This document shows, one piece after another, positions 7,410 to 28,298 of a DNA stretch of 64,000 nucleotides. The notes under the pieces are model-generated. The model worked only from the letters and a program-made list of their open reading frames with translations, made no database searches and was not told where the DNA came from. The translations under genes were made by a program, and so were the position numbers. This DNA comes from a virus (Duplodnaviria > Caudoviricetes). The stretch is from positions 32,001 to 96,000 of IMG/VR virus record IMGVR_UViG_3300021256_000056. One strand, written 5' to 3'. How positions within the stretch are numbered: position 1 is the stretch's first letter; each line of letters begins with the position of its first letter.

Positions 7410-7414
7410 GAAAA

Positions 7415-8889: not shown

Positions 8890-8891
8890 TG

Positions 8892-8963: not shown

Positions 8964-8969
8964 AATTAG

Positions 8970-9422: not shown

Positions 9423-9426
9423 ATCG

Positions 9427-10052: not shown

Positions 10053-10101
10053 TTTCTTAATTTTTCACAAATATACATTTATTTTTTATAAAAATCAATA
10101 G

Positions 10102-10216: not shown

Positions 10217-10223
10217 AAATTTG

Positions 10224-10340
10224 TGAGGAGGATGGGACTCGGACCCATGACCCACGGGTTAAAAGCCAAGGTGAGGTTGCTGTTAGTTTTCAGTACAGAA
10301 AACGTTTTATACGTTGCTCTACCAACTGAGCTACCTCCTC
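10224..10340 (-). tRNA. tRNA-Lys(UUU) with 44-nt ACAGCAA-module insert at 29/30 (10268-10311)
   Basis: Removing the insert gives acggg-cttttaa-cccgt. Confidence 0.82.
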
Positions 10341-10346
10341 AAAATT

Positions 10347-10393
10347 GCGACGATAGGAGGAGTCGAACCTCCAATCATGCCAAATCTATCGTC
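10347..10393 (-). ncRNA. tRNA minihelix-like RNA (acceptor plus T arm only)
   Basis: gacgata...ggagg-ttcgact-cctcc-tatcgtc-g. Confidence 0.6.
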
Positions 10394-10428
10394 AACCGTC
10401 AACTTAAGACAACGTGTTACCACGTTTG

Positions 10429-10511
10429 TGGCCCCTGTGGGACTCGAACCCACACCCCATTGCTGGGAGTAGATTTTGAGTCTACCGCGTATACCATTCC
10501 GCCAAGGGGCC
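10429..10511 (-). tRNA. tRNA-Leu(CAA)
   Basis: Cloverleaf with long V arm, loop ctcaaaa. Confidence 0.92.
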
Positions 10512-10615
10512 ATAAATAAAGAAGCCAGGCAACACTGCGACATTTTCAGAGTTTTTGTGACCACTTTGCTGGTACCCTACTTAAGTGGTTGCCCTACCAA
10601 CCTCGGGCTTCTTAG

Positions 10616-10689
10616 TACCCCCTGTAGGATTCGAACCTACGACCCGCAGATTAGAAATCTGCTGCTCTGTCCAACTGAGCTAAGAGGGC
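10616..10689 (-). tRNA. tRNA-Arg(UCU)
   Basis: Cloverleaf, loop tttctaa. Confidence 0.92.
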
Positions 10690-10694
10690 TTTTG

Positions 10695-10769
10695 TGCTCC
10701 TAGAAGGACTCAAACCTTCAACCTTATCCTTAGGACGGATTTGCGCTGATTCAATTGCGCCATAGGAGC
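10695..10769 (-). tRNA. tRNA-Arg(CCU)
   Basis: Cloverleaf, loop gtcctaa. Confidence 0.85.
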
Positions 10770-10778
10770 ATTTGTTGC

Positions 10779-10881
10779 GGCAGTAAACCGAATCGAACGG
10801 CTATCAACCACCGACGGTGGTCATTCTTCGTGCGGGTTTCATTTAATTGCAGCTGCACAATACCCATTAAACTATACTGCC
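10779..10881 (-). ncRNA. aberrant tRNA-like RNA with expanded D region
   Basis: ggcagta/tactgcc acceptor, T arm ccgttcgattcgg, extra hairpin in D loop, non-canonical anticodon arm. Confidence 0.55.
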
Positions 10882-10886
10882 ATTTG

Positions 10887-11010
10887 TTGCGGGTGAGGGA
10901 GTCGAACCCCCGTCTTTTCGTTATGGGTGAAATTACGATGTAAGTTGCCGCAAGATTTCCATGCGAAAACCTTTTTTGCTTTTACATGCTAACCATTGCA
11001 CTAACCCGCA
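10887..11010 (-). tRNA. tRNA-fMet(CAU)-like with variant module insert (GCGGCAA)
   Basis: tgcgggt acceptor, cccataa loop, insert ggttttc-gcat-ggaaatctt-gcggcaa. Confidence 0.65.
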
Positions 11011-11018
11011 ATATTGTG

Positions 11019-11421
11019 TGGAGATGGGCGGACTCGAACCGCCGTTTTTCAAGCTTGCAAACTGCTTTCTACGCGCTTAGTTTTCTTTATGATTCGTTGG
11101 GCACTGGTGGAAAACACACCTGAGTACTCAATATATCATTCTGGAAACGTAGCCAAACCAGACGAATGAAACTGGCCTGCCGCTCTCGATTTGATGATGC
11201 CCTCATATTGTGAATTCAACCAAGACCAAACATTCACGAGGACAATCGTCCCGACACATCCTAGGTGCCGATGGATTAGGCTTATTTGCTTAGCAAATTA
11301 AGCGGCGATTGCATAGGTGTTGTTGCCAACTAATTTTTTTGATATTTGTTTAAAGGCTAAAAATCAAAACGCCTGCGTGCTTACAATCCTCATAGATTGA
11401 AATCAAAACCAAAACATCCCC
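11019..11421 (-). ncRNA. ssrA: tmRNA, tag GNNTYAIAA
   Basis: 5' ggggatg, 3' ggcggttcgagtccgcccatctcca, internal ggcaacaacacctatgcaatcgccgcttaa. Confidence 0.93.
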
Positions 11422-11430
11422 ATGTTTTTG

Positions 11431-11503
11431 TACCCGATACAGGACTCAAACCCATACTCTGGGAGCCGTATTCCCAAGTTCTATTCAGTTAAACTAATCG
11501 GGC
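11431..11503 (-). tRNA. tRNA-Arg(ACG)
   Basis: Cloverleaf, loop atacggc. Confidence 0.8.
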
Positions 11504-11643
11504 TTTTTATTTTATTTTCATTTTCTCTATATTCCTTTTTTCTATATCTTCTTACCGAAGAATCATTCCTGCTTCCAAAATTTTCTGTCATTGCATGGCA
11601 ATTTGGACATAAAACTTCTATGTTTTCTTCTGTTACATTTGTT
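11481..11643 (-). pseudogene. HNH endonuclease remnant
   Basis: VTEENIEVLCPNCHAMTENFGSRN C-terminus only; upstream ATG out of frame. Confidence 0.8.
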
Positions 11644-11676
11644 TATTAATAAATAATTAGATAAGAAAGATTTGAG

Positions 11677-11750
11677 AGCCCTCAGTCGGAGTCGAACCAA
11701 CACTTCATCCATACCACAGATGCGTACTCAGCCTTTAATACGATGAGGGC
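11677..11750 (-). tRNA. tRNA-Thr(GGU)
   Basis: Cloverleaf, loop gtggtat. Confidence 0.85.
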
Positions 11751-11855
11751 AAATCGCCAGGTGAAGCTAACCTGGCCCCCGTGAACTACCAGCCAGCCCT
11801 GCACCACGGGTGTTGATATGAGTACTGGTTGCATATCAACTTACAAGCTTACTTG

Positions 11856-11930
11856 TGCTCCCGATGGGACTCGAACCCATAACCCACTGTTTAAGAGACA
11901 GTTGCGCTCAACCAATTGCGCCACGAGAGC
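11856..11930 (-). tRNA. tRNA-Lys(CUU)
   Basis: Cloverleaf, loop ctcttaa. Confidence 0.9.
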
Positions 11931-11940
11931 AGTTATTATG

Positions 11941-12012
11941 TAGCGGATAGGAGAGTCGAACTCCTCTCTCAAGATTGAGAATCTTACGTCCTAACCGATA
12001 GACTAATCCGCC
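11941..12012 (-). tRNA. tRNA-Glu(CUC)
   Basis: Cloverleaf, loop ttctcaa. Confidence 0.88.
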
Positions 12013-12213
12013 ATTATCATATTACACAATGTTACATGTTTTATAAAAAATAAAGCATTGCGGATTTCCGTAGTCACCGCAATCGTTCTCCTCCTGCTAC
12101 CGTATACGACAGGCTAAGGCGAACTATAAGAACTTACCTATATTCGAACCTTTTCCTCTTAATCCACTTTATAAGAGTATGCTATAGGGTTCCCCACCTT
12201 GGTACTTTGATTT

Positions 12214-12372
12214 GTCGCGCATCTTGGAATCGAACCAAGTTCCTCTGGGGTTAGCAGCCCAGCGAGTTTTGTGTCTCCGCAGACTTGCAATCTACAATTA
12301 AGCGTCGTTGCAACTCAACTTAATCTGAATGTAGTATCCGCTTCTGTGCGTCTCCAACACTCTCATACGCGG
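12214..12372 (-). ncRNA. tRNA-like RNA with GCU anticodon arm and large insertion 5' of it
   Basis: cgcgta/tgcgcg acceptor, ctggg-ctgctaa-cccca, T arm cttggttcgattccaag. Confidence 0.55.
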
Positions 12373-12505
12373 ACAAGGCAGCGTGTATGCATCACCTTCT
12401 GACCTTGTAGAACGGACTTATATACATACCGTAACATTTTCGTAGTATGTAATTTCATCTGTTTTGTGTCTCCGACGAGGCTCGAACTCGTGACCCCCAC
12501 ATTAA

Positions 12506-13341
12506 CCTACCCAATATAGTTGCCTATACCATCTTACGATGTTTGAGTTTGGACCATTTCTTATCCATGCCACTTCGTGGTTTAGGTGGTGGTGTATGGC
12601 CTCTACACATTTATGCAAAAAAGCAATTTAGCCCGACGTTTTCCCAGGGGGATGTTCGTCGAATTAGCCACCATTCACGACAAGGGTTTCCCCTCGTGTG
12701 CTCCTTTCTTAGATTCACGTAAACATGAAATGCATAACCCGCTTTTAGTTTCCCTATGAAGCGGTTTTCCACATTTTTTGCACACGTGTTTGTACGTGTG
12801 GGTGTGTGTGGTTGTTTTAACCCCCTTCATATTTTTCTTTCCAGCGTAACTATCTGTTTGTGAATGGCAATTAGGACACAAAATCACTAGATTGTCGAGT
12901 TCATTATTAAAATGGTCTCCATCTTTATGATGAACTTGCAACGTTATGCTTTTACCATGCCACTCAGAAATTCCGCATTCTGGATTTTCGCACTTATATT
13001 CTTTCAGCCCCAATGAAATTAGTTTTTTCATTAATTCCGAAGATTTTATAAGTTTGTCTTTAACAAAAAAATCCTCTTTGTCTAGACCGTTGTGATTTTT
13101 ATTTCCGATGTTCGATTTTTGTCCAGTGAAATGTGAGGTATCTAGGTCGTATTCTTTCACGTATTTGTAAAACGTTCTATAATTACCACCAACAGGTTTC
13201 CATCCCACAGCACGACAAAAATCAGCAACACTAAAAACACGTTTACATATCTCTATTGCCTCTTCTTTACCAATTACATTTTTTGTCATAATAACACTTT
13301 TATAATAAATAGTGTTTAATTGGTAAAAGTAAGAAGATTTG
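12506..13341 (-). mobile_element. group I intron (IC3-like) with HNH ORF, inserted after U34
   Basis: 5' exon ends U, intron ends G; P/Q/R/S-like aattcgacgaa, cgtcgggctaaat, gtgtagaggc, aagaaatggtcc. Confidence 0.88.
12675..13289 (-). CDS. intron-encoded HNH homing endonuclease
   Basis: LQVHHKDGDHFNNELDNLVILCPNCHSQT. Confidence 0.9.
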   Translation of the reverse strand: MTKNVIGKEEAIEICKRVFSVADFCRAVGWKPVGGNYRTFYKYVKEYDLDTSHFTGQKSNIGNKNHNGLDKEDFFVKDKLIKSSELMKKLISLGLKEYKCENPECGISEWHGKSITLQVHHKDGDHFNNELDNLVILCPNCHSQTDSYAGKKNMKGVKTTTHTHTYKHVCKKCGKPLHRETKSGLCISCLRESKKGAHEGKPLS

Positions 13342-13399
13342 AAGTGTGGTGCTCTACCAACTGAGCTACGGAGACTTTCCTTAAATTACCATAAAATTG

Positions 13400-13475
13400 T
13401 TGCGCAGGACGGGCTCGAACCGACGACTTCCAGGATATGAATCTGGTGCTCTACAACCAACTGAGCTACTGCGCA
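13400..13475 (-). tRNA. tRNA-Met(CAU)
   Basis: Cloverleaf, loop ttcatat. Confidence 0.85.
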
Positions 13476-13483
13476 ATATTTTG

Positions 13484-13556
13484 CGGAGACGGGCGGAGTC
13501 GAACCACCGACGCGGGGCTCTTCAGGCCCCCGCTCTACCAACTGAGCTACGTCTCC
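13484..13556 (-). tRNA. tRNA-Phe(GAA)
   Basis: Cloverleaf, loop ctgaaga. Confidence 0.92.
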
Positions 13557-13561
13557 AAAAA

Positions 13562-13661
13562 AAAGGTAAAATCTTCGAAGATTGCTGCAGCGGAAGTCCC
13601 CGAGTCGAACGGTGGTTACCTGGTGCCCCTTGCATACAATACTGCAACAAATTTTACCTTT
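13562..13661 (-). ncRNA. structured RNA candidate with T-loop
   Basis: aaggtaaaat/attttacctt and ttgttgcag/ctgcagcaa stems enclosing ccgttcgactcgg. Confidence 0.5.
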
Positions 13662-13662
13662 G

Positions 13663-13738
13663 TGGGTGTCCTGAGACTCGAACTCAGAAACCTCTTGTGT
13701 ATCAGACAAGTGCTCTCAACCAATTGAGCTAGGCACCC
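13663..13738 (-). tRNA. tRNA-Ile(GAU)
   Basis: Cloverleaf, loop ctgatac. Confidence 0.9.
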
Positions 13739-13748
13739 AGAAATTTTG

Positions 13749-14466
13749 TGGGACAGGAGGGACTCGAACCCTCACCCTCCTTAGAGGACTGGTTCCTCGT
13801 ACCACTATGGCTTTCGCCACCAAAACAACTTCGAACTTGCGGGTTGGATTTTCAAGGCTTGTACACCCCCAGGTTGTCTTGTTTGTGGTCTGGACTGTAT
13901 CTTAACCATATTGAAATCTAGCTAGTAAACATCCTTATACTTATAGTCTCGTAGTTTAATGTGGGTCACGCGACCACCCCTAGCTCATATAAGCATGTTA
14001 TTTCAACTTAGGCTCCTCCTGTATCTCGTCTCTACACACTGTCTATTATTCTATATCTGCGGTCCCTTGTTCTCAGGCTATATTCATTACTGAAGTATAG
14101 TCTTGCAGTATAGATTTTAACATTGGCTCGGCATTAGCATATTATTCCTATTGGGGTTTTACAAGTTTCGCTTATAGTTTTATTCCGATATTCACGGTGT
14201 CCCACAAAACCAATATTTGAATAACTTAGCTTTCACCGAATTAGGAAGGTTCTACATAACGGGTTTCCCCGCGTCCACAGGCTACTCTCCCGTTTGGGAT
14301 TGTTTACCTTATCTATCACGCTTCGCAGCGTCCTGTGGTATGCACTCAAGTTAAACGGGCGCCTATCCGCATACAGAGTGTCTCAGTCTGTAATCTCCAA
14401 GTATAGGTTATCAGTATAAGCCCGTTGTTCATAAGACCAGCGCGTCTACCATTCCGCCACTGTCCC
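13749..14466 (-). tRNA. tRNA-Leu(UAG) split by group I intron
   Basis: Exons 14433-14466 and 13749-13797 join to ctggt-cttagga-accag. Confidence 0.9.
13798..14432 (-). mobile_element. group I intron after U34, no ORF
   Basis: U at 5' splice site, terminal G; core segments shared with introns at 26726 and 27550. Confidence 0.88.
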
Positions 14467-14605
14467 AAAATTAGATAAGGGTGTATAATGCTGCCCTTGC
14501 TATATTGTGTGGCAACCCTTAAATGAGATTTTCCAAATACCTTTGTCTGCCATATTCTCAGGTGCTCATTACTGTAGCATTGATTATGTATATGAAGGTT
14601 ACCAC

Positions 14606-14691
14606 TGGTGCGGCAGGTGAGACTCGAACTCACACGGGATTGCTCCCACCACCCCCTCAAAGTGGCGCGTCTACCATTCCGCCACTGCCGC
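14606..14691 (-). tRNA. tRNA-Leu(GAG)
   Basis: Cloverleaf, loop ttgaggg, encoded CCA. Confidence 0.9.
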
Positions 14692-14857
14692 ATAAATATA
14701 TTGTTTTTAAATGGCCCTGGAATCTGTATTGACCACTAAGGGGGTAATCCTCCATCTACAGAATCTGTACCATCAGGTTTATCCCATTGGTTCCCTAAGA
14801 CCCATTCTTTTTCTCGGTGCGTGGTGACACCTCAAACCGTGAATATATACCTAGTTG

Positions 14858-14930
14858 TGGAGGATACGAGACTCGGACTCGTGACCCCCTGCTTGCAAAG
14901 CAGGTGCTCTACCGACTGAGCTAATCCCCC
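14858..14930 (-). tRNA. tRNA-Ala(UGC)
   Basis: Cloverleaf, G3-U70, loop tttgcaa; T-loop GTCCGA. Confidence 0.9.
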
Positions 14931-15242
14931 TTCATGGTCCTCTTTTAATCGCTATTCATTTAGGGAGCAGGAAGGACCAGTCCTATGACGTGTTAGCCTC
15001 AAACGCCATTCTAAGAGGTTCCTCAAAAATGCACTGCAGTATATGGTGTCCACCATTGCCCCTAATCGCCACCGCTTTCGGAGGGGTTTTGATACCATAG
15101 CATCATCGGAGAAATAAACGGGTTACTTAGTTATCGCTTGGCGCATAGACGCCTCAAACTTGCCTGTTGGCCACCCTTCGTGAGGTACAGAATAACTTAC
15201 TGTTTCTATGCCTTCAGTTACTGCCTCACCCTCACCCGTTCG

Positions 15243-15314
15243 TAGCGGATAGGAGAGTCGGACTCCTCTCTCAAGAATGAAAATCTTGCGTCCTAACCGA
15301 TAGACTAATCCGCC
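15243..15314 (-). tRNA. tRNA-Glu(UUC)
   Basis: Near copy of Glu(CUC) at 11941; loop ttttcat. Confidence 0.88.
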
Positions 15315-15453
15315 ATAAATTAAGAGCATAACGGTGTTTCGAACCACCGTTAATTGTTACCAGCGTGCGTTTCCTCTAATACACCAACCGAGTTTATTGT
15401 TTGCTCTGGGACCGTGGCCTTTAGTCCATTATCGAGCCCTCTGGTATCTCTTG

Positions 15454-15520
15454 TGCGTAAACATGGAGTCGAACCACGTTATTTCTAGGATTGCATTGCC
15501 TCTATATGCTATTTTACGCA
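15454..15520 (-). ncRNA. tRNA-like RNA lacking a proper anticodon arm
   Basis: gcgtaaa/tttacgc acceptor, D arm, gtggttcgactccat T arm. Confidence 0.5.
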
Positions 15521-15665
15521 AATAAGAGCATTATGAAGTCTCGAGCCTTCATAAATTGTTACTTAGCGTGCTCGTCCATCTTTACACTATTCCCGTTAAG
15601 AGTCCTTCCTTTTCACGTTGCCTAGAACTTTTCCGAAAAGAGAACTCACCTCTAAGTATCTCTTG

Positions 15666-15748
15666 TGGGCAGGGAGGGATTCGAACCCCCGAAGCCGTGA
15701 GGCAGCAGATTTACAGTCTGCCCGTTTTGACCGCTTACCTACCTACCC
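15666..15748 (-). tRNA. tRNA-Tyr(GUA)
   Basis: Cloverleaf with V arm, loop ctgtaaa. Confidence 0.92.
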
Positions 15749-15880
15749 ATAAAAAAACTTAAGCCACTCGCGTCCCACAGGTCTGTTCTCGCTTTTATTA
15801 AGAGGTGCACACGAGATTACTCTCCCTCCTTTAAAGTAAGTCGCCCTCCTAAGCCTTGTCCGCTTAAGTTAAAAAACAAC

Positions 15881-15947
15881 GGGAAACATTTTTACGTATG
15901 TTCAGAAAGAAAGTCGGAATTTTAGTAAATTTTGCTGTTAGTTTCCC
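15881..15947 (-). ncRNA. stand-alone ACAGCAA module with Glu(UUC)-like anticodon stem-loop
   Basis: gggaaac-ta-ACAGCAA...ttccga-ctttctt-tctgaa...gtttccc. Confidence 0.7.
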
Positions 15948-15952
15948 TTTAG

Positions 15953-16074
15953 AGCTGATGCAAGGAATCGAACCTCGGTCTGCGGCTTGGAATGCATTTC
16001 TTGATTTTTGCTGTCCGTAACCTTGTCAGAATACCTTATTTGAAAACGCTGTGCTACCACTACACCACATCAGC
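15953..16074 (-). tRNA. tRNA-Gly(UCC) with 51-nt ACAGCAA-module insert at 29/30 (15996-16046)
   Basis: Removing the insert gives gcggc-attccaa-gccgc. Confidence 0.8.
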
Positions 16075-16254
16075 TTATATTAAAATCTCCTGTTTGCCTC
16101 GGGTGGACGCGTCGGGCTGAATCCGCCCATCACCCTTAACACCTCGCCATTATGCTATGGCTTTATTCCATACTGCATAAAGGTTTTCCTACCACGTGGG
16201 TCACATAATGTCAACCTGATTGTTGGTTATGTAGCTCCCTCAGAGATAATAAAT

Positions 16255-16332
16255 TGGCGGTGCGTACGGGATTCGAACCCGTGAACTCCACCGTGACAGG
16301 GTGGCATGATAGACCAGCTTCACCAACGCACC
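16255..16332 (-). tRNA. tRNA-Asp(GUC)
   Basis: Cloverleaf, loop ctgtcac, encoded CCA. Confidence 0.92.
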
Positions 16333-16334
16333 GT

Positions 16335-17150
16335 ATGCTTTTTCGGTTTAACATTAACCGTATTACTGGCGGTTTTGGTATCGCACTTTTCCGCCTTAGT
16401 GCGTCCGAATTTCACGGAAGCCTTACTATCGCGAATAATGTACTTAAGGCTACTACCAAGGTGACTTGTGGAGCAGCCCTTCGCGATTATGATGCCACAA
16501 TGCACTTGGTTTATAATTTAAGGTTACCTAAAGTAGATGTGCCTTGGATTCGCACCTCTCACGGAGACTTTTTACACCAAAACCACTATAGTCAATTTTG
16601 GATATTAAGTTACTCAGCCTTTGACCCGATATACCATTTCACACCACTGCAGCTGGCGGCGATTTTGTACCTGGCCATACTCATTGTCACTTTAGTTTTT
16701 CGCGCTCGGGCTCCCTGCCCGTGTTGGCGTTGCAACCTCTGACTACTCTCACGGTTAAAACTGTGGGGGGTTCTTGGGAGCAAACACAAAGTGCTTTGGG
16801 AAGCATAGCCTATTGGCTTACTTTAACTCCACACAGGGGTAGTCCTCCCCTGTCCCAAATACATGTTTAGCCCTTGGTTTTCAGGCTTGTATTCTCGTTT
16901 TTTCGAGGTAAATTCGCCCCTTTTTGGTACCCAACGCATTGGAGAGTCGAACTCCGCTGCTTGCATATTCGAAAACACGCCCAAGGGGACCCTACTACCG
17001 TTCGGGATTACTGCTAAATTAAGAGCCATAGCATATTCGAATTCCGCTATGTTGTTACCGAATGTGCGAACGTCTCTTGCATTTCACACCGCTGCTAATC
17101 GTACTCCATTGCTATACGCGTAATAGCAACTTAAGGAGCCCTTTCCAGTA
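16335..17150 (-). ncRNA. large structured ncRNA candidate (GOLLD/ROOL-like context)
   Basis: ~800 nt, GC-enriched, hairpin-rich, no credible ORF, between tRNA-Val and tRNA-Asp. Confidence 0.5.
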
Positions 17151-17157
17151 TCTCTTG

Positions 17158-17232
17158 TGGGAGTGGAGGGATTCGAACCCCCGACATCTACCTTGTAAGG
17201 GTAGCGCTCTAAACCAGCTGAGCTACGCTCCC
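17158..17232 (-). tRNA. tRNA-Val(UAC)
   Basis: Cloverleaf, loop cttacaa. Confidence 0.92.
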
Positions 17233-17572
17233 GTTTCTCACCTAAGACTAACGCGCTAATCTGTCATTCGCAATGCACTAGGTGTATAACTTTTTTTATA
17301 CGTGCAGTTCTAACCCCCTTCGTGACCCCTCAGTGCTACTATAGTCGCCCTATATTTGGATTACTGACGATACCCTACACCTACTCATCACGCCATTTAA
17401 CCGTGGCTCTCTCGCATTGTTCCAATCTACGAGAGGCCCCCCCACGGTGAGGCCGTTAGTCGGATTTGACTTGAGCAAGAAGTCTGAATTGAACAGCAAG
17501 TTCCGTCCTTACGTAGCGAACAAGGGACGGACGTCTCCCGAACCTGGGTATCTTGCTAAAAAATGTGTAACC

Positions 17573-17706
17573 AGAAATCAGAAATGTTTTACTCTACCTA
17601 CTGAGCTACATGGGAAGAATACCGTAACTCCCACGGAGGGACTCGAACCCTCGTCCTTAGTTTTACAGACTTACAAACAATTAATGAACTTGCTGTAAGA
17701 TTTCTT
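17573..17706 (-). ncRNA. circularly permuted tRNA(GUA)-like RNA closed by ACAGCAA module
   Basis: Order: module, ctgtaaa loop, T arm, loop-closed acceptor (cgtggga/tcccatg), D arm, module 3' strand. Confidence 0.78.
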
Positions 17707-17732
17707 CACGTTACACGGTGATGGTATTTTTG

Positions 17733-17807
17733 CGGGAAGAGAGGGGCTCGAACCCTCGACCTAAGGATTAACAGTCCTTTGCTACCACCAGCTGAGCTAC
17801 CTTCCCG
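17733..17807 (-). tRNA. tRNA-Asn(GUU)
   Basis: Cloverleaf, loop ctgttaa. Confidence 0.92.
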
Positions 17808-18122
17808 AAATTACAGGCACGTAAACGAAATGCCCTCAGACTTCCCAATGGTTTATAGATTAAAGACCTAAAACCATTATGCGGCTCCTTCACACCTACG
17901 AAAAACAGTCTTTGTCAACTACCACGTGTTATAGTATTGTAGGCAAGTTATTCTAACGTCAAACTGCCATGACGATGGTTGCTATTACGCCACACCAAAA
18001 ATAGCGGGTCTGTTTACTAAACAAGAAATTGACCGCAGGTTGGATTTACACCAACTTACTCCCAGTAAAATCCAGGGCTTCAAATTACAAAAGCCTCGCA
18101 CGGTTGATTCCTTGTAGAAATA

Positions 18123-18236
18123 CGGGAAGCGTTTTACGTCCAACGGACGGGGGCGGACTTGAACCGCCGAACCTCTCAAGTTCTGATTTTCAGTCGGAAT
18201 TGTTAAACCTTTGTTGAGATTGCTGTGTGCTTCCCT
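18123..18236 (-). ncRNA. ACAGCAA module enclosing Phe(GAA) anticodon arm and T arm
   Basis: gggaagc-ac-ACAGCAA...ttccga-ctgaaaa-tcagaa...ggcggttcaagtccgcc...gcttccc. Confidence 0.75.
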
Positions 18237-18240
18237 GTTG

Positions 18241-18325
18241 CAGGCGCTGGAGGATTCGAACCCCCGAGGAATTTAATCCTGCTGGTTTTGGAGACCAGTG
18301 CCTTCGACCGCTCGGCCAAGCGTCT
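18241..18325 (-). tRNA. tRNA-Trp(CCA) with long variable arm
   Basis: ctggt-ctccaaa-accag then caggattaaattcct V arm. Confidence 0.85.
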
Positions 18326-19028
18326 GTATATATTCCATTAATCCTTTTTTATCGAATGGTAGTCCGTAATGCTTAAACCATTTTCTTATAGCATTATCCG
18401 ACACTCCAAAAGACTTTCCGACTTGTAAAAAACTTCTTTTAACTAAAAAAAGATTAATTAAAGTTTCTTTTGATGGGTGATTTCTTTCCCATGCGCATTC
18501 TCGCGCTTCTATCCAATCTTCTTTGTTTGTGTGTCTTTTCTTTACTATGGTTTTAGTAGTGGATTCGTATTTATTTGAATTTTTTCCTGCATAAGTATCC
18601 GTTTGTGAATGACAATTTGGGCATAATAACATGAGATTTTCAATCCTATTATCGTCATGTATACCATTGATATGGTGGAGTTGTAATGATATCGGTTTAC
18701 CATTCCATTCGCAAATTCCACATTGTGGATTCTCACACTTATTTTCTTTTAAGCCACACTCAATTAGTCTTTTTTTTAGCCGACTTTTGTTTGTGTATAA
18801 ACTATGTTCAACTAGAATGTCATCCATGGGAATTTTTTCTCTGTAGCTTTTTGTCATTCGTTTATAAGAGAATCTTAATTCCAGCCCGAGTTCCTTTGCA
18901 AGCGCCCTTACCTCTTTATAATCTTCCCCGCCAACGTTTTCTATTCCGAGTCTATGACAAAGGTCCAACATATTAACACATTTGTCGTAATTTTCAATTA
19001 ACCTGTCTATCGCGTATTCTCGATTCAT
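18273..19028 (-). CDS. free-standing HNH endonuclease
   Basis: LQLHHINGIHDDNRIENLMLLCPNCHSQT; C-terminal HTH-like segment; reads into tRNA-Trp. Confidence 0.9.
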   Translation of the reverse strand: MNREYAIDRLIENYDKCVNMLDLCHRLGIENVGGEDYKEVRALAKELGLELRFSYKRMTKSYREKIPMDDILVEHSLYTNKSRLKKRLIECGLKENKCENPQCGICEWNGKPISLQLHHINGIHDDNRIENLMLLCPNCHSQTDTYAGKNSNKYESTTKTIVKKRHTNKEDWIEARECAWERNHPSKETLINLFLVKRSFLQVGKSFGVSDNAIRKWFKHYGLPFDKKGLMEYIQTLGRAVEGTGLQNQQD

Positions 19029-19216
19029 AATATTCTTTTTATTATAAATAGTATGAAAAGAGAAAAATCGAACCTTTTTGGAAATTTTTATTTAGTTCGA
19101 ATATATAATGAAAAATGAATTTTCCTCTAAGGGGAGTAGTCTAACTCCCCAGTGTGTTTTATGACCTTTTCAGCAAACCAATGTAAAAACCCAATAACTA
19201 TGGTTGTAAAAATTTC

Positions 19217-19281
19217 GGAAATCTGTTTTTCAGAATATTAGATTAAAAGTCTAGTCCTTGATAAATTGCTGTAAGATTTCC
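19217..19281 (-). ncRNA. stand-alone ACAGCAA module with Lys(UUU) anticodon stem-loop
   Basis: ggaaatct-t-ACAGCAA...taga-cttttaa-tcta...agatttcc. Confidence 0.78.
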
Positions 19282-19283
19282 TC

Positions 19284-19374
19284 TGGCGGAGAGGCTGGGA
19301 TTCGAACCCAGGGGACGCTCAACACGCCCAACGGTTTTCAAGACCGCCGCTATCGACCACTCAGCCACCTCTCC
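19284..19374 (-). tRNA. tRNA-Ser(UGA)
   Basis: Cloverleaf, loop cttgaaa, encoded CCA. Confidence 0.93.
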
Positions 19375-19383
19375 ATTAAATTT

Positions 19384-19456
19384 GAACTGCAAAAGGATTC
19401 GAACCTTTACCCGTGGACTATGCCCGCGTGTCCTGTCCATTAGACGATACAATTTT
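19384..19456 (-). ncRNA. pseudo-tRNA with non-canonical anticodon loop
   Basis: D arm cgtctaatggacaggac, T arm aaaggttcgaatccttt, loop gcatagt. Confidence 0.5.
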
Positions 19457-19524
19457 TTATCGCAGTAAAGAGGCCACCACTGATTTAACACGGCATCAGC
19501 AATGACAACCACTACGCCACGTGT

Positions 19525-19605
19525 GCTGGGGTATGGTGATTCGAACACCAATTATTCTCACGCCCTTAGGGCTTGAGGCGGTACTACCGTTGTACTACAC
19601 CCCAG
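19525..19605 (-). ncRNA. pseudo-tRNA with extended anticodon arm
   Basis: ctggggt acceptor, D and T arms, ctcaagccc-taa-gggcgtgag arm. Confidence 0.5.
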
Positions 19606-19693
19606 TTTATGTCTCTCCAAAGTCACGCCACTTTTGGGTATTTATATCGCGGGGGCAGGTGTCGCCCTCGCTTATGGTAATTTATCTCAATAT

Positions 19694-19705
19694 TGTCAAA
19701 GAACG
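19694..19705 (-). promoter_or_regulatory. boxA-like antitermination element
   Basis: GTTCTTTGAC just downstream of promoter; also at 24835, 27494, 28200. Confidence 0.6.
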
Positions 19706-19722
19706 TGTGTTCCGAAGAACTC

Positions 19723-19775
19723 TGGTGCAAATATATATGTAATTTTTCAAACTACAAAATATTTTTGCATTTTTT
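19723..19775 (-). promoter_or_regulatory. Bacteroidota-type promoter (TTTG ... TAnnTTTG), duplicated at 24851-24906
   Basis: aaatattttgtagtttgaaaaattacatatatatttgca on minus strand. Confidence 0.75.
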
Positions 19776-19780
19776 TTTTG

Positions 19781-19857
19781 TCTAGGAGATGAGACTCGAA
19801 CTCACATTATCCTGGCTCCTGACCAGGCAACCTCACATCCAATTGGTTTACTCCTAG
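19781..19857 (-). tRNA. atypical tRNA, Pro(AGG)-like
   Basis: C1-G72, A73; cctgg-tcaggag-ccagg with C33. Confidence 0.5.
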
Positions 19858-19872
19858 TTATATTTCAATTTG

Positions 19873-19956
19873 TGGCCCCGACGGGACTCGAACCCGTAAC
19901 CCTCGGTTTAAAAGACCGATGCGCTCGCTTTCGCTATCCATTTGCGCCACGAGGCC
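19873..19956 (-). tRNA. tRNA-Lys(UUU) with hairpin in D loop
   Basis: tcggt-cttttaa-accga; D loop contains gc-gaaa-gc. Confidence 0.8.
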
Positions 19957-20051
19957 GTTCCATTTTTCTCGGAAGCCTCGCATCACAATCGGGGCTTCAC
20001 ATTAATATTTCTGTTTTATACGTTTCATGTTTCTATTTTATTTCTTTTCTT

Positions 20052-20140
20052 GCTGGCCAGGAAGGATTCGAACCTCCAACCTTTGACACATCTAAAGCCT
20101 TTAGGGCAGTGCCTGCTCTCCCATTTGGAGCTACTAGCCA
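20052..20140 (-). ncRNA. pseudo-tRNA with expanded anticodon loop
   Basis: Intact acceptor, D and T arms; ggcac/gtgtc stem encloses 19 nt. Confidence 0.5.
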
Positions 20141-20183
20141 GTTCTTTTGACAGTTTTTGGCATGCCACTGACAAACCGACAGG

Positions 20184-20259
20184 TACTGGGTGACGGAATC
20201 GAACCGACATCAGATGCTTGAAAGGCACCTCGCCTCAACCATTAGCAGATTAACCCAGC
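20184..20259 (-). tRNA. tRNA-Glu(UUC), second type
   Basis: Cloverleaf, loop ctttcaa. Confidence 0.8.
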
Positions 20260-20266
20260 ATGTATT

Positions 20267-20560
20267 TTAATGAACTAAATGTTTAAATTTTTCCAATTTC
20301 AATTTCGCTTCTTCTCTATCTTCCTCGGTCAAAAGTCTATTTGTACTCCCCACGTGCCACTTATCACACTTTGAACATTTATAAGCCACCATCTTATGTA
20401 ATATGTTTTCACAAGTATTAAGGAACCTGGCCGTTGTCAGAGCATCCATCTCAGTATCGTAGCTCTTTTTGGGGACCAATTTGTCTCCCTCAATCTTATA
20501 ATGGCTTCTTATTGTTCTTTTTTCATCCATACGAAATTCATAATGCAAATTTCGTGCCAA
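20267..20560 (-). CDS. hypothetical protein with YKCSKCDKWH zinc motif
   Basis: ORF track. Confidence 0.7.
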   Translation of the reverse strand: MARNLHYEFRMDEKRTIRSHYKIEGDKLVPKKSYDTEMDALTTARFLNTCENILHKMVAYKCSKCDKWHVGSTNRLLTEEDREEAKLKLEKFKHLVH

Positions 20561-20667
20561 AGTTTTCTTTTTCTAAAAATTTCTTCAAAAAAACCTCCAG
20601 AGAGTTTTGGGGAACATCTTTGGAGGCGTGGAATATAGTGTCGGTCTAAACCGTGTGGTGCTATGTA

Positions 20668-20826
20668 TTATGCATCTGTTCCCATTATTCCTCCTCCTAG
20701 TCCTTTAAATGGCCATGCGCCGAGGCGTTCCTCTGACTTTCTAATGCTGACATATAGGCATGGGCAATCAAGGCTGCTCTTGTGGGAGCCTCCCATGACG
20801 TTTGTATTATTGCTCAGCATAACCAT
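20668..20826 (-). CDS. putative 52-aa leader peptide followed by terminator (20590-20627)
   Basis: MVMLSNN...GLGGGIMGTDA*, then cctcca/tggagg hairpin with U-tract. Confidence 0.4.
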   Translation of the reverse strand: MVMLSNNTNVMGGSHKSSLDCPCLYVSIRKSEERLGAWPFKGLGGGIMGTDA

Positions 20827-20984
20827 TTTGTACCTATTTTTCAATTATAAATATATGATAAAATCGAAAAAACTAAAATTCTGTGCAAATATATATGCTT
20901 TTTTTGTAAAAATCAACAAAAAACAAAAAAAAAGAGCGAATTTTTTAGATTCGCTCAATACGTTTATCACTGTTTATTCAAATC

Positions 20985-21323
20985 TTACCTACCAGCAGCG
21001 AGTATGTATGAGGCAATCATTTTTCCCCAAGCATCGTCTCTAGGGATTGAGAATTCACCACCGTTATCCCAATCGTACCCTGTTGGTGCCCACATAATTG
21101 TTATGTGGTCGTAACTTGGCATAAGACGGTACATCTTTCCAGACTTTCCCCTTACCTCAAAATCTTGGTGTCCTTCTTTTGATACACGTTCTCCGTAGAT
21201 GTCGTCCATTATTTCTTTTGAAGGAATGGGGTTATCTGTCCACTCATTTAGCACTTTTTTAACGCTTTCTTTAACTATTTTACGAAGCTGTGATTCGTTG
21301 AGATTTATAGTATTCTTTTTCAT
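20985..21323 (-). CDS. hypothetical protein with N-terminal INLNESQLRKIVKES motif
   Basis: ORF; upstream CTATTTAT motif. Confidence 0.75.
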   Translation of the reverse strand: MKKNTINLNESQLRKIVKESVKKVLNEWTDNPIPSKEIMDDIYGERVSKEGHQDFEVRGKSGKMYRLMPSYDHITIMWAPTGYDWDNGGEFSIPRDDAWGKMIASYILAAGR

Positions 21324-21361
21324 GTGCTTTTAATTTTCTTATAAATAGTTTGTTGAAACAA

Positions 21362-21387
21362 AAAAGCCTCAGATTTATCTGAGGCTT
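21362..21387. terminator. intrinsic terminator
   Basis: aagcctcaga/tctgaggctt hairpin. Confidence 0.7.
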
Positions 21388-21395
21388 ATAGGAAC

Positions 21396-21462
21396 GGAAA
21401 ACTTTTTGTTAAAATTCGAAGTTTGGAATCGGATTTGGTCTAATATTTGCTGTCGGTTTTCC
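21396..21462 (-). ncRNA. stand-alone ACAGCAA module with Trp/Gly-like loop
   Basis: ggaaaac-cg-ACAGCAA...cga-ttccaaa-cttcg...gttttcc. Confidence 0.65.
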
Positions 21463-21476
21463 TATTTTTGTCTGTT

Positions 21477-21794
21477 TTAGTCTTCAAAGTATTCCTTGAT
21501 AAGTGCCTTAATGGTTTCAAGTTCTACTTCCCTGTCGCGGAGTTCGAGAGCGAGATTGATACGTTTGCGTACCCAGTCCTTGGTGTTGAGGTTTTCTCCG
21601 ACGATGAGGCTCTGTGTGCTTCTCACTGAGAGGTCTTCCATGGAGACAATCTCATTGTTGATGGTGCGGATGCACTTTTCGACTGAACGCTTTTCATCTT
21701 CAAAGACGTCCTTGGTCTCTTCGGTGACATTCTGTGCCCTTTTCTGAATAAGGTTGTCACCAGTGTTTGTTAAGATTTGAGTAAATTTTCCCAT
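21477..21794 (-). CDS. hypothetical coiled-coil protein
   Basis: ORF track. Confidence 0.75.
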   Translation of the reverse strand: MGKFTQILTNTGDNLIQKRAQNVTEETKDVFEDEKRSVEKCIRTINNEIVSMEDLSVRSTQSLIVGENLNTKDWVRKRINLALELRDREVELETIKALIKEYFED

Positions 21795-21795
21795 A

Positions 21796-22137
21796 TTATT
21801 TGCTGTTTATTACGTGTCTATGCTGGAGTTTATAAAGTCCTGGAACGATTTCGATGCTTGCGTGCGATTCTGATTCCCAGTCTTCGATTGTGTTATCAAT
21901 CTTCTCGATTATGCTTCCTCCGTCGTGTCGCAAAACTTCGTGCATGATTGCAATCTCACGTTTAGTTTCTAATTCCCGATGGACTTTCTCTGGGAGGGCT
22001 GCAGCAAGTGTTGCGTAGTCATTAGAGCTAAGGCTGACCTGCACTGTTACGTTATGGTCTCTCGCATCGCTTTCGCAAGTCACAAGGACGTTATCTCCGT
22101 AATCGTTAGTCGCAGTTAAGTTATTAATATTAGTCAT
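21796..22137 (-). CDS. hypothetical protein
   Basis: ORF track. Confidence 0.7.
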   Translation of the reverse strand: MTNINNLTATNDYGDNVLVTCESDARDHNVTVQVSLSSNDYATLAAALPEKVHRELETKREIAIMHEVLRHDGGSIIEKIDNTIEDWESESHASIEIVPGLYKLQHRHVINSK

Positions 22138-22154
22138 GTTTTTCGTAAATTTTG

Positions 22155-22226
22155 TGCTCCATACAGGAATCGAACCCGTCTAAGAACGTTTTAGGGACGC
22201 CCGCTCGGCCACTGAGCCAATGGAGC
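22155..22226 (-). tRNA. tRNA with CUA anticodon (amber suppressor candidate)
   Basis: gctccat/atggagc acceptor; ggcgt-ccCTAaa-acgtt; C33. Confidence 0.65.
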
Positions 22227-22234
22227 AGAAAGAC

Positions 22235-22295
22235 AGGAAACATTAAAATCAACATTATCAGTGTTTATTTGACGAAAGGTTGCTGTGTGTTTCCT
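22235..22295 (-). ncRNA. stand-alone ACAGCAA module with Ile(GAU) anticodon stem-loop
   Basis: aggaaaca-c-ACAGCAA...aaca-ctgataa-tgtt...tgtttcct. Confidence 0.78.
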
Positions 22296-22311
22296 TATCT
22301 TAATGTTTCGT

Positions 22312-22602
22312 TTATTGAACCAACTTAAGTCCTTTAAACATTTCACCCGAATCTTCAACCGCAATTGCCGTAAGGCTATTGTTTAAATCGGGCTCGTAGA
22401 ACGCAGAATAAGTCTTATGTTTGTCCCTCAATCTCTGTCTCCATTTCTCAACGTCGGCGTAGAGATATATAAGGTACTCATTATTCCATTGTTGCTGTGG
22501 GTTATCCAAAAGATATTGTGCAACTGCGTGCCCACCTTGAACGCAGGCGTAAACGGGGTTGAGTCGTTTACTCACCAGCACGTACAATCTCTTCGCAGAC
22601 AT
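22312..22602 (-). CDS. peptidyl-tRNA hydrolase 2-like (PTH2/PTRHD1 fold)
   Basis: LYVLVSKRL..CVQGGHAVA..FYEPDLNNSLTAIAV. Confidence 0.7.
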   Translation of the reverse strand: MSAKRLYVLVSKRLNPVYACVQGGHAVAQYLLDNPQQQWNNEYLIYLYADVEKWRQRLRDKHKTYSAFYEPDLNNSLTAIAVEDSGEMFKGLKLVQ

Positions 22603-23023
22603 CGGTATACACTTTAATCGTTTCTTCCCCCCAGTATGTTTTACAATTTTTTTCCTCATAGACTTTTAACTGATAACCATAGGTTTTCAGATAACTATTA
22701 ATCTCATCAGAATAAAGGAACAAGGGGTGTTTTCCTTCGAGGTGGTCAGCCAAGCGATATCCAGTTTGGCGGTAGTAGTCTTCTTTGTTAAGAGGCTTCG
22801 CCTTATTTTCTATCTGCTCAAACTTTCTTCCTCTCATTAACCCATATGCCGCATACATTGCCCTTAGGGTGTCTTTATTACTAGAAACCTTCCAGCAGGC
22901 TTCATACGGTTGCATTGTCCTTTCGGTCTTTAGGTTAACAGTTTTTCTTTGTTCTTTTGCTTTTCTTTGTTCCACCTCCAAGGCGGCGATTTCCTTACGG
23001 AATTCAATAATTTCTTGTTTCAT
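22568..23023 (-). CDS. hypothetical protein
   Basis: ORF with LRAMYAAYGLMRGR motif. Confidence 0.75.
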   Translation of the reverse strand: MKQEIIEFRKEIAALEVEQRKAKEQRKTVNLKTERTMQPYEACWKVSSNKDTLRAMYAAYGLMRGRKFEQIENKAKPLNKEDYYRQTGYRLADHLEGKHPLFLYSDEINSYLKTYGYQLKVYEEKNCKTYWGEETIKVYTDVCEEIVRAGE

Positions 23024-23093
23024 AATGTTGTTTGGTTTTAATCATTTTATTTTTGGCTCTCGCCGACAAATTCCACTTTCAAATCAAACACCA

Positions 23094-23126
23094 TTAAGGT
23101 GGAACTGGATTAACCTAGTGTTTCAT
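23094..23126 (-). promoter_or_regulatory. uORF M-K-H-(TAG)-V-N-P-V-P-P-TAA
   Basis: atgaaacac tag gttaatccagttccacct taa. Confidence 0.55.
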
Positions 23127-23161
23127 AACGATAATTGTTAAGTTTGTTATTAAAAATAAAA

Positions 23162-23464
23162 AGAACACTACGGTAGGATTACTGATTACCTACAAATACT
23201 CTACAAGCGCGTTATTCAGTCACACCCAAGAAGGTTAGCTACGCCTACTTTTAAAAGGGTGAGGGGAATGCTTACCCCCAAACGGATACAGCCATCAGTC
23301 ACTGTAACTACGATTTGTCCGTTTCTTACGTCACTCTCGGTTGGCCAACCGAGGCTACTTCAACCTTACGCTTCGTGTTGCCCTCTAACCGCCTCCTGAA
23401 CTTTTCAGTCCAGGCTAACGTACCTTATGGGCAGGCTACCCATTGTTCGGTCACAAAGTGTTCT
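23162..23464 (-). ncRNA. ~300-nt structured ncRNA candidate
   Basis: Closing stem gaacact/agtgttc, many internal hairpins, no ORF. Confidence 0.55.
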
Positions 23465-23567
23465 TTTTATGATGGGTCGCCCCGCCATAAATTTTCTTTT
23501 TTTTAAAGAGCTTTTACAAAAATACGACCTTTTAATTAAAAAAGCAAGGTCTTTTAATAAAAAAAAC

Positions 23568-23625
23568 GGAAAACTTTTTTGTGACGCAGTATTATCAGTA
23601 CTTCCAAAATTGCTGTAAGTTTTCC
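23568..23625 (-). ncRNA. stand-alone ACAGCAA module with Ile(GAU) anticodon stem-loop
   Basis: ggaaaactt-ACAGCAA...agta-ctgataa-tact...aagttttcc. Confidence 0.78.
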
Positions 23626-23646
23626 TGCCTTGCCAGGTCGAGTTTG

Positions 23647-23827
23647 TTGCGGGGGCAGGAATCGAACCTGCGACCTTCAGCTTAGGATTGGTAGGAGGAA
23701 TCGAACCTCCGTTTTCACGTGCCTTACTAGGGCTAGATGTCCTGTACCACTAGACGACACCAATCTGGTTCGTTACAGTGAACCACGCTGTATTGAGGCT
23801 GACGAGCTACCGCTGCTCCACCCCGCA
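23647..23827 (-). tRNA. tRNA-fMet(CAU)-like gene interrupted at 35/36 by a 109-nt insert containing a nested tRNA-like gene (23685-23766)
   Basis: Halves join to tcagc-ctcataa-gctga; insert has its own acceptor, D and T arms. Confidence 0.75.
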
Positions 23828-23982
23828 ATATATTTCAAAATAAAGACTGCCCTTAGATTTAAACTTACCTACGCACAGTGAGGTACTAAGGCGGTTCGTT
23901 CAGGTTGCCCGATTTCGTCTAGAATGTTACGGGCCCTCGTGCGTGTCAAACGGGAATTGGCCGTCGCCTTCCACAGTCTTTG

Positions 23983-24089
23983 TTGCGATGGTAGGATTCG
24001 GACCTACGCTCTGAAACGATGTTTCATATCCTTGGCGCCCCAGGAAACACGGGAGTTGCCCCGCTGCTCTGACCACTGAGCTACACCGC
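23983..24089 (-). ncRNA. tRNA-like RNA with three hairpins replacing the anticodon arm
   Basis: gcggtg acceptor, gctcagtggtcagagc D arm, gtaggtccgaatcctac T arm. Confidence 0.6.
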
Positions 24090-24124
24090 AAAGTAAATAT
24101 ATGATAAAAGTTAAAGGTTTCTTA

Positions 24125-24830
24125 AAAAAATCAGCGTTGTCAAAAGCGCGTGGCCGCTACGCTGATTATAATGTCTAATTAAGCACTATTTTGCCACATT
24201 GGCGTCCATAACCTCCCCTGTAGTGTGATGGACAAACATCACAAAGTCACAGTAACTCAAACAGGTTCCCTCTTGCTACGGCTTACTCTCTCCTTTACCG
24301 CGGGGTCAACGCCATGTCCGCGAGGATTCAGCCTTTACTCATGCACACTCCCGCATCCTACTGATAAACTGCATTACAGTCTCGCTGAGCGGGCCCAGCA
24401 CTAACCAACTACAGAGCACGTGCACATCTCTCATGTTGGTCTGGGAAATAACTCCTCCGATTTCCCGTTGTCAGGTTTCCATCCTAATAAACCCCGCCTA
24501 CTCTATGGGGCAACGAAATACGGCCAGTTACGCATTCATTCCAGAATCCGAGAAGCATTTACGATACACTTCTAAAAACGTTTGAATCATTCGAGCCGAA
24601 AAACTTATTACTTATAGGTTTTATTATATCCTATCGCCCTATAAGATAAAATTCAGCACTTAAAGATAGGATTGCGCCTTAATTCCCCTGTGCAATAATA
24701 CGAGGGTTTAATCCCAACTCGGACTTTTCAAAATGTCTATCCAAGTAGCACTTTTGTTTTCGGGCGTACGAATCGACGTTTTACGAGCATCTTCTGCTCA
24801 CCTTACTTTTCCGACTGCGCGGATTGGATT
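24125..24830 (-). ncRNA. large structured ncRNA candidate (~700 nt)
   Basis: ORF-free, GC-enriched, own promoter and boxA upstream, terminal hairpin aatcagcgt/acgctgatt plus U-tract. Confidence 0.6.
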
Positions 24831-28250: not shown

Positions 28251-28298
28251 GTTATTGGTGATATCTAGCAAAAATCGTGCCAAAGTATCACCATTTTT

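Follow-up and report, generated by a model that had tools for sequence, protein, structure and literature searches.

To our knowledge, self-splicing (group I) introns are the only kind known from the tRNA genes of bacteria and their phages. In archaea and eukaryotes, proteins cut tRNA introns out and ligate the exons (bulge-helix-bulge [BHB] introns, EndA, RtcB), with the halves held by the tRNA body, and these introns, together with permuted and split tRNAs, offer the best working analogy for the element described here. The closest published counterparts are in the tRNA genes of Lak megaphages, for which Devoto et al. 2019 (PMC6784885, Fig. 4, Table S6) reported "enigmatic introns," one of which "itself may encode a tRNA." No boundary rule, structure model, or mechanism was given in that paper (PMC6784885), and our literature search found no other description of such introns.

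We analyzed a 64,000-nt stretch of DNA (the window), part of a 195-kb IMG/VR virus record (G000) that is an estimated ~53% complete, in which an insert of this kind was found. Like the Lak introns, the insert occupies the anticodon loop of a large-phage tRNA gene, looks like a tRNA, and is conserved across genomes; it is also missing from some orthologues, so that alignment sets the point of excision. The window element thus shows the site, the tRNA-like fold, and the conservation with presence and absence among orthologues that mark Lak-type introns. The Lak A1 intron (Table S6) starts with ATACAGG, as does ATACAGCG here, and ends in an 8-bp helix plus a C, but only these features are shared: in place of the pseudoknot hairpin TGGTTC/GAACCA of the window, the Lak intron has a plain CAGG...CCTG hairpin as its leader.

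The insert lies in a tRNA array that occupies ~6–25 kb of the window, all on the minus strand, with 35 tRNA genes called by ARAGORN, a tmRNA, and an amber-suppressor-like tRNA. Several tRNA matches in this array (Rfam tRNA model; ARAGORN with introns allowed) were far over normal length, and many of its genes are therefore interrupted. The host of the element is a large gut or rumen phage. The region gave no blastn match among GenBank phages, an exact search of IMG/VR with the 5′ half gave no match, and the neighboring 514-aa protein, used as a query for related loci, had no relatives. At 23647–23827 on the minus strand is a complete CAT-anticodon tRNA in which 109 nt of extra sequence separate anticodon base 35 from base 36. 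The features of the gene, from 5′ to 3′, are as follows.

23794–23827, minus strand: exon 1, with acceptor strand TGCGGGG, D arm, anticodon-stem strand TCAGC, and loop bases CTCA (32–35), placed by sequence, ARAGORN, and alignment.
23786–23793, minus strand: linker ATACAGCG, 8 nt, the start of the putative intron, placed by alignment and pair counts.
23766–23785, minus strand: leader hairpin TGGTTC-ACTGTAAC-GAACCA, 6 bp with an 8-nt loop, forming pseudoknot stem S2.
23686–23765, minus strand: inner tRNA-like unit, with G(-1) at 23765, acceptor ATTGGTG/TACCAAT, a Glu-type D arm, T arm GGAGG-TTCGATT-CCTCC, and C73 at 23686.
23685, minus strand: terminal C, the unpaired last base of the putative intron.
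23647–23684, minus strand: exon 2, with loop bases TAA (36–38), anticodon-stem strand GCTGA, variable loop AGGTC, T arm, acceptor strand CCCCGCA, and discriminator A, with no encoded CCA.

With introns allowed, ARAGORN called a single tRNA at 23646–23827 with a 109-nt insert in the anticodon loop; its boundary lies two bases too far 5′, and hence it read CCT, Arg(CCT). Alignment with the intron-less CAT tRNAs of two related phages placed the gap exactly between CTCA and TAA, in agreement with the first-pass annotation of this DNA, which had put the insert inside the anticodon. Joined, the loop remnants give CTCATAA with anticodon CAT, and ARAGORN named the in silico spliced product tRNA-Met(CAT). 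The outer cloverleaf has acceptor TGCGGGG/CCCCGCA, D arm GAGC-AGCGGTA-GCTC, anticodon stem TCAGC/GCTGA, and T arm GCAGG-TTCGATT-CCTGC. The two halves had also been described as fMet-like, which is right as far as the CAT anticodon and an initiator-type A11:U24 pair (D stem GAGC/GCTC) are concerned. Two other marks of bacterial initiators are lacking, in that T1-A72 is a standard pair in place of the 1×72 mismatch and the anticodon stem lacks three G-C pairs at 29–31/39–41. Judged by its sequence, the outer gene is a Met-family tRNA with only part of the bacterial initiator features, and thus a possible initiator.

The hairpin and tRNA-like unit that had been noted within the 109-nt insert were both recovered: the 79-nt unit at 23764–23686 scored 38.6 bits with the Rfam tRNA model, against a gathering score of 29, and ARAGORN also called it (23685/6–23764). 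Its acceptor had been given as gattgg/ccaatc; this is the right helix, but it starts at the -1:73 pair and omits two pairs of the full ATTGGTG/TACCAAT, which the G(-1):C73 pair lengthens to 8 bp. Similarly, the gcc-ctAGTaa-ggc loop is present as described, but the "anticodon" arm that ends in this CTAGTAA loop is 6–7 nt too long (19 vs. 13 positions of the Rfam tRNA consensus) and is not kept in homologues. ARAGORN named the unit tRNA-Thr(AGT), for which neither a 5-bp anticodon stem nor a conserved 7-nt loop was found. Across homologues, an acceptor-like helix of 8 bp and a T arm are always present, and a D arm usually. An RNAalifold consensus of nine inner homologues held acceptor, D, and T stems only, with compensatory changes in 13 of 16 pairs (including all seven of the acceptor) and no anticodon arm. 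The -1:73 pair itself varies over 11 copies, being G-C in the window, A-T in most, and T-A in one. The arm of the L065 copy has a 4-nt apical loop, and a copy in L081 lacks the anticodon arm altogether, with acceptor and T arm joined by 22 nt. Because only these three stems are kept and the L081 copy consists of acceptor plus T arm, the inner unit, on its pattern of conserved pairing, is a mimic of the tRNA top half and not a decoding tRNA-Thr.

Two tRNA bodies in one transcript could also be the point of the arrangement, such that the composite RNA is never cut and the outer body is a scaffold on which the inner element is presented, perhaps to decoy tRNA-targeting nucleases or to act as a double tRNA mimic. 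Full elbows are kept in both bodies, and the array is rich in tRNA-like RNAs with remodeled anticodon arms and also holds a YrlA-like permuted unit. Yet a scaffold would have no need for host anticodon bases that are preserved and matched to the tRNA body, and the inner anticodon-arm region, which decoy display would require, is the least conserved part of the unit; we regard an uncut composite as distinctly improbable.

Relatives were traced through a short RNA unit common to other IMG/VR contigs and then through the leader hairpin. The same module occurs in 10 contexts of other phage or metagenome contigs, within Met, Asn, Lys, Ile, Pro, and Arg tRNAs, at insertion points 34/35, 35/36, or 36/37 and with insert lengths of 85–120 nt. 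The tRNA hosts outside the window are as follows.

Met (CAT): L078, in G004, a complete 177-kb genome.
Asn (GTT): L068, in G003; L083; and L065, in G002.
Lys (TTT): L075, in G005 (complete genome); L079, in G006; L081; L084; and L086.
Ile (GAT): L096.
Pro (TGG): a second copy in L081.
Arg (TCT): L106, a second, diverged copy in G002.

Two further copies (L090 and L091) are free-standing, lacking an outer tRNA and lying behind a promoter-like sequence of sigma-54 consensus. A wider leader pattern added three loci in IMG/VR (L101, L103, and L105), one identical, doubtful non-tRNA sequence. Misassembly, which the first-pass annotation had named as a refuting outcome, is excluded, because the arrangement recurs in independent contigs of other samples. 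The comparison with related phages that it had proposed finds the module conserved and intron-less orthologues present.

The build of the intron is fixed: an 8-nt linker, a 6-bp hairpin with an 8-nt loop, and a tRNA-like unit whose -1:73-extended acceptor is followed by one unpaired C. This C is found behind the inner helix in every nested copy, and as the +1 base in 10 of 10 listed nested copies and in one of the two free-standing ones. A single rule follows the build, with one cut 8 nt 5′ of the hairpin and the other after the single C behind the inner acceptor helix. Applied in silico, the rule turned 13 of 13 copies into canonical tRNAs when read by ARAGORN in ordinary mode (two Met, three Asn, five Lys, and one each of Ile, Pro, and Arg). 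Loop remnants of 4+3, 3+4, or 5+2 nt always made up a 7-nt loop, with an anticodon suited to the tRNA body. Since the insertion point shifts while the architecture of the intron stays fixed, the boundaries seem to be dictated by the build of the intron and not by position in the host tRNA, as far as aligned copies can tell. The first-pass annotation had offered a tandem decoy as its alternative, which leaves unexplained why the remnants always sum to the correct anticodon loop. An alternative rule, with a cut right after N73 and a 9-nt linker, was rejected: it gives CCT, GCT, TCT, and TGC anticodons that misfit their bodies, namely the initiator-like tRNA, Asn tRNAs with G73 and a short variable loop, and the Pro tRNA. 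As a separate observation, under the rule the Lak A1 "Tyr GTA" gene would have a CTGT+TAA loop, Asn GTT, and its acceptor stem and G73 resemble those of the Asn hosts here; its published isotype may be wrong, Asn(GTT) and not Tyr(GTA).

In the leader, bases 2–6 of the linker (TACAG) can pair with CTGTA of the hairpin loop to form pseudoknot stem S1, with five pairs in the window copy; position 3 of the linker is an invariant A in 14 copies. Over these 14 leaders, 96% of cells were paired when the hairpin and a three-pair pseudoknot were scored, compared with ≤44% for slid partners. The hairpin is conserved in all copies, a conservation that is inflated by retrieval on the hairpin sequence, with L065, L106, and the second L081 copy as the informative variants; three of its six pairs are compensatory (TAATTT/AAATTA, CGGTTA/TAACCA, GAACTG). 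In the pseudoknot, a linker CAG faces a loop CTG in the window copy and L078, and CGG faces CCG elsewhere. With three core pairs, one of them compensatory and seen in two sequences, covariation lends the leader pseudoknot modest support. A pairing between the linker and the outer anticodon stem (3′ strand) was also considered; only 5 of 8 hosts allow it, and it was set aside as not general.

The outer tRNAs also carry compensatory changes. Among the intron-bearing Lys tRNAs, these fall at 7-66, 28-42, 49-65, and 52-62. The window copy and L078 share the same insertion and have exons identical at 66 of 73 positions, with 1-72 being T-A in one and A-T in the other, while their inner units have strongly diverged. 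The outer cloverleaf is therefore under selection while it bears the intron. This bears on the possibility that a selfish DNA insertion killed the tRNA gene and that the halves are a pseudogene still undecayed. The element is clearly mobile, with varied host tRNAs and presence or absence among orthologues, and further CAT tRNAs in the window (13399–13475 and 19872–19956) might make a loss tolerable. A dead gene, however, does not account for near-identical exons and a compensatory 1-72 change beside diverged inner units, nor for four compensatory pair changes in the Lys hosts, and no copy has a damaged loop or stem; we consider this explanation rather improbable.

Mobility is also evident from the distribution among orthologues. 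Intron-less CAT tRNAs are found in G002 and G003, which carry the intron in Asn instead; in the window the reverse holds, with the CAT gene split and the Asn tRNA (17732–17806) intact and intron-less. In complete genomes, across their whole tRNA-bearing regions, the split gene is the only CAT tRNA of G004 and the only Lys tRNA of G005. Taken together, the insert is best read as a mobile, tRNA-shaped intron, belonging to a pseudoknot-leader subfamily of the "Lak-type" class. We favor, as somewhat the better bet, the reading in which it is excised and the halves are religated. The first-pass annotation had raised the same possibility of an excised inner RNA and rejoined halves, and comparison now favors it through the 13 of 13 rebuilt loops and the compensatory outer stems. 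A mobile spliced intron, and neither a decoy nor a misassembly, is the most likely nature of the element on comparative grounds.

Assignment to an intron type already known, whether group I or archaeal BHB, or dismissal as an assembly artifact is scarcely credible. Group I introns are found in the anticodon loops of bacterial, plastid, and phage tRNAs, where they share mobility and presence/absence with the window element, and a sub-threshold group I match lies at 12527–12722. However, the window insert has only 109 nt (85–120 nt in the family, vs. over 200 nt for group I), has no catalytic core, and gave no Rfam group I match (RF00028) in 23560–24150 at E values up to 10. As had been noted at first pass, group I boundary rules are not followed: the 5′ exon ends in A and not U, the intron ends in C (in all nested copies) and not G, and the site shifts between hosts. 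A BHB, with two 3-nt bulges separated by a 4-bp helix, was seen neither in the MFE fold nor in the centroid fold, nor on inspection. The site of insertion is also variable (34/35 to 36/37), and EndA (PF01974) is absent from the 195-kb record, which is ~53% complete and covers the phage side only. In place of a BHB, a tRNA mimic and a pseudoknot would set the boundaries. An artifact is at odds with recurrence of the arrangement in independent contigs.

If the element is a spliced intron, its primary transcript would be cut at both intron ends, with the halves held by the outer cloverleaf and then rejoined, so that one gene would yield a working tRNA and a small RNA made of pseudoknot plus tRNA-like unit. 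RNase Z cuts tRNA precursors after the first unpaired base behind the acceptor helix. The proposed 3′ cut falls after the first unpaired base behind the inner acceptor helix, and the inner mimic probably recruits host tRNA 3′-end processing; because of the invariant C and the conserved top half, RNase Z would be the most economical reading. A tRNA-shaped element likewise marks the cut in mitochondrial tRNA punctuation and in polycistronic processing by RNase P and RNase Z, where the counterpart of the 3′ splice site is an RNase Z site. The window element would differ in that its flanks are rejoined and in that its 5′ splice site lies apart from the point at which RNase P would cut the inner mimic. 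That point is the base of the inner helix, 28–29 nt 3′ of the inferred 5′ splice site, and RNase P, RNase Z, and a ligase alone therefore cannot make exon 1 here.

The pseudoknot, with its invariant linker A3, is the obvious candidate for a 5′ splice signal; it probably directs the 5′ cut, 8 nt ahead of the hairpin, through recruitment of a nuclease or through self-cleavage. Plant-virus tRNA-like structures of the TYMV type are RNase P substrates with an adjacent pseudoknot, located at the 3′ ends of viral genomes. They seem to resemble the window insert in having an H-type pseudoknot stacked by a tRNA-like acceptor helix; they are not introns, however, and have no sequence relation to it. Theta (minimal HDV-like) ribozymes, which adjoin phage tRNAs and set the tRNA end by cleaving their own 5′ edge (PMC10879173), are a precedent for a self-cleaving leader. 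The window leader is without P3/L3, P4, and the catalytic C of J4/2; it has two stems in the order a-b-a′-b′, unlike the HDV-like P1-P2-P3-P1.1-P4 double pseudoknot, and gave no Rfam ribozyme match.

The ends may first be healed by the products of two genes near the tRNA arrays, which in the window are as follows.

792–1547, minus strand: metallophosphoesterase gene, just downstream of the tRNA array.
3549–4070, minus strand: HAD_SAK_2 gene (RNA-repair-type HAD), just downstream of the tRNA array.

HAD_SAK_2, a family named for RNA-repair proteins, is encoded within or next to the tRNA array in each of G000, G004, and G005 (inside the array in the latter two) and at other places in G002 and G003; all 14 control bacterial genomes lack it. 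A metallophosphoesterase lies near the tRNA array in G000 and G005. As end-healing enzymes, both are candidates only. The 353-aa protein that adjoins the metallophosphoesterase had no Pfam, PHROG, or PDB match, and its single-sequence AlphaFold model (mean pLDDT 37.5) was unusable. Searches for endonucleases and CCA enzymes in the window's genome record were all negative.

Sealing would require an RNA ligase. G001, G002, and G005 encode one of Rnl2 type, and a phage enzyme of this kind would act where available; elsewhere the host would have to supply the ligase, RtcB for example. None of RtcB, Rnl1, and Rnl2 was found in the window's 195-kb record, itself ~53% complete, or in complete genome G004, and neither G000 nor G004 encodes a homologue of the G002 RNA ligase protein; a host or unrecognized ligase would therefore be needed there. 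RNase Z products have 3′-OH and 5′-P ends, which RtcB does not join, and for this reason a host-only pathway is not coherent as it stands.

The missing ligase favors a different account, in which processing takes place but no ligation: the gene would carry a small RNA of pseudoknot plus tRNA-like unit that is freed by tRNA-end enzymes, leaving the halves as by-products, a nicked tRNA, or tRNA halves. The free-standing leader and tRNA-like RNA of L090 and L091, behind its promoter-like sequence, is probably a product itself and fits this account as well. Against it, nothing would then hold the remnants to a 7-nt loop that matches the body, as in 13 of 13 copies, compensatory changes maintain the outer stems, and two complete phage genomes have no other gene for the anticodon of the split one. 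We judge release without ligation to be unlikely. For the spliced intron, the full route would be one new to bacteria, in large phages of gut and rumen: a tRNA-mimic intron with a 3′ cut by RNase Z, a 5′ cut set by the pseudoknot (a new self-cleaving motif or a landing pad for a nuclease), healing by HAD_SAK_2 and metallophosphoesterase, sealing by a ligase, and an excised RNA that is functional and also occurs free-standing behind a sigma-54-type promoter. We put this complete scheme forward tentatively, as a possibility.

Other interrupted genes in the same array belong to different families. The CAT gene near 10887, which the first-pass annotation called interrupted as well, is indeed so, but by an insert of another kind, a hairpin plus GCGGCAA. 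A second insert family, "helix + NN + ACAGCAA," runs through the window at 6641–23625 (minus strand), for example at 10101–10216, 10223–10340, 15952–16074, and ~10810–10985. In three tRNAs, this takes the form of a 44–51-nt insert in the anticodon stem at 29/30, in the order Y, hairpin, ACAGCAA, X. Free-standing units carry the motif in circularly permuted form, its helix clamping a payload that is either a permuted tRNA or an anticodon-like stem-loop. Tandem arrays of it lie on contig IMGVR_UViG_3300037502_003029, with 13 ACAGCAA on one strand compared with 1.9 expected. The family recurs at L025 (6950–8310), at L107, and in the Lys tRNA of G003 (28/29); a search with the pattern RGGAAAYCTTACAGCAA mostly returned chance matches, L025 being the sole real one. 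The motif looks like a processing signal that serves introns and permuted RNAs alike. Membership of the ATACAGCG linker in this family was considered and rejected, as other copies carry ACGGA or AAGGA there; its ACAG is due to pairing with the hairpin loop and not to kinship with ACAGCAA.

Circularly permuted tRNA-like units were seen at 17567–17708 of the window (minus strand) and at 7205–7335 of L025; they begin with the T arm and acceptor 3′ strand, have a loop that closes the acceptor, and end with the D arm. With Rfam YrlA (Y RNA-like), the window unit gave a sub-threshold score of 31 bits. A YrlA/Ro system was rejected, as the record has no TROVE gene and the intron leader does not resemble the YrlA stem. 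Related phages have more tRNA-like genes that are over-long or reduced, with inserts of other types, at L109 (G002, 180732–180844), L110 (G005, 94438–94548), and L111/L112 (G002). In the window, tRNA-like genes at 19525–19604 and 20052–20140 (minus strand) have elongated anticodon arms tipped by GCC-CTAAA-GGC or GCCC-TAA-GGGC hairpins, which the arm apex of the nested unit, GCC-CTAGTAA-GGC, resembles.

Suppressor-type tRNAs also occur, with CTA (amber) at 22154–22226 of the window (minus strand), TCA (opal) in G004 and G005, and TTA (ochre) in G005, which hints at stop-codon recoding in this phage group. The sub-threshold group I match at 12527–12722 (34 bits, minus strand) overlaps an HNH-endonuclease ORF inside the array (12675–13289), and more HNH genes lie at 7415–8140 and 18273–19028. 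Exact matches to the sigma-54-type consensus TGGCACG-N4-TTGC lie at 20545–20559 and 28268–28282 (minus strand), on the tRNA strand and upstream of parts of the array; the two matches in the window, compared with 0.55 expected, are not significant alone.

For this subfamily, the present analysis adds the exact boundary rule, the 8-bp inner helix with its single C, the pseudoknot leader, and the free-standing copies, and it shows RNase P and RNase Z by themselves to be insufficient for the 5′ splice site. As the rule predicts exact junctions, splicing is directly testable. Such genes are missed or misnamed by tRNA finders (ARAGORN gave Arg(CCT) here and Arg(TCT) in relatives), and tRNA inventories and genetic-code inference for large phages are therefore distorted. 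An intron of ~100 nt, without a catalytic core and in working order in many phage tRNAs, would imply a protein-dependent or a new ribozyme-dependent route of splicing in bacteria.
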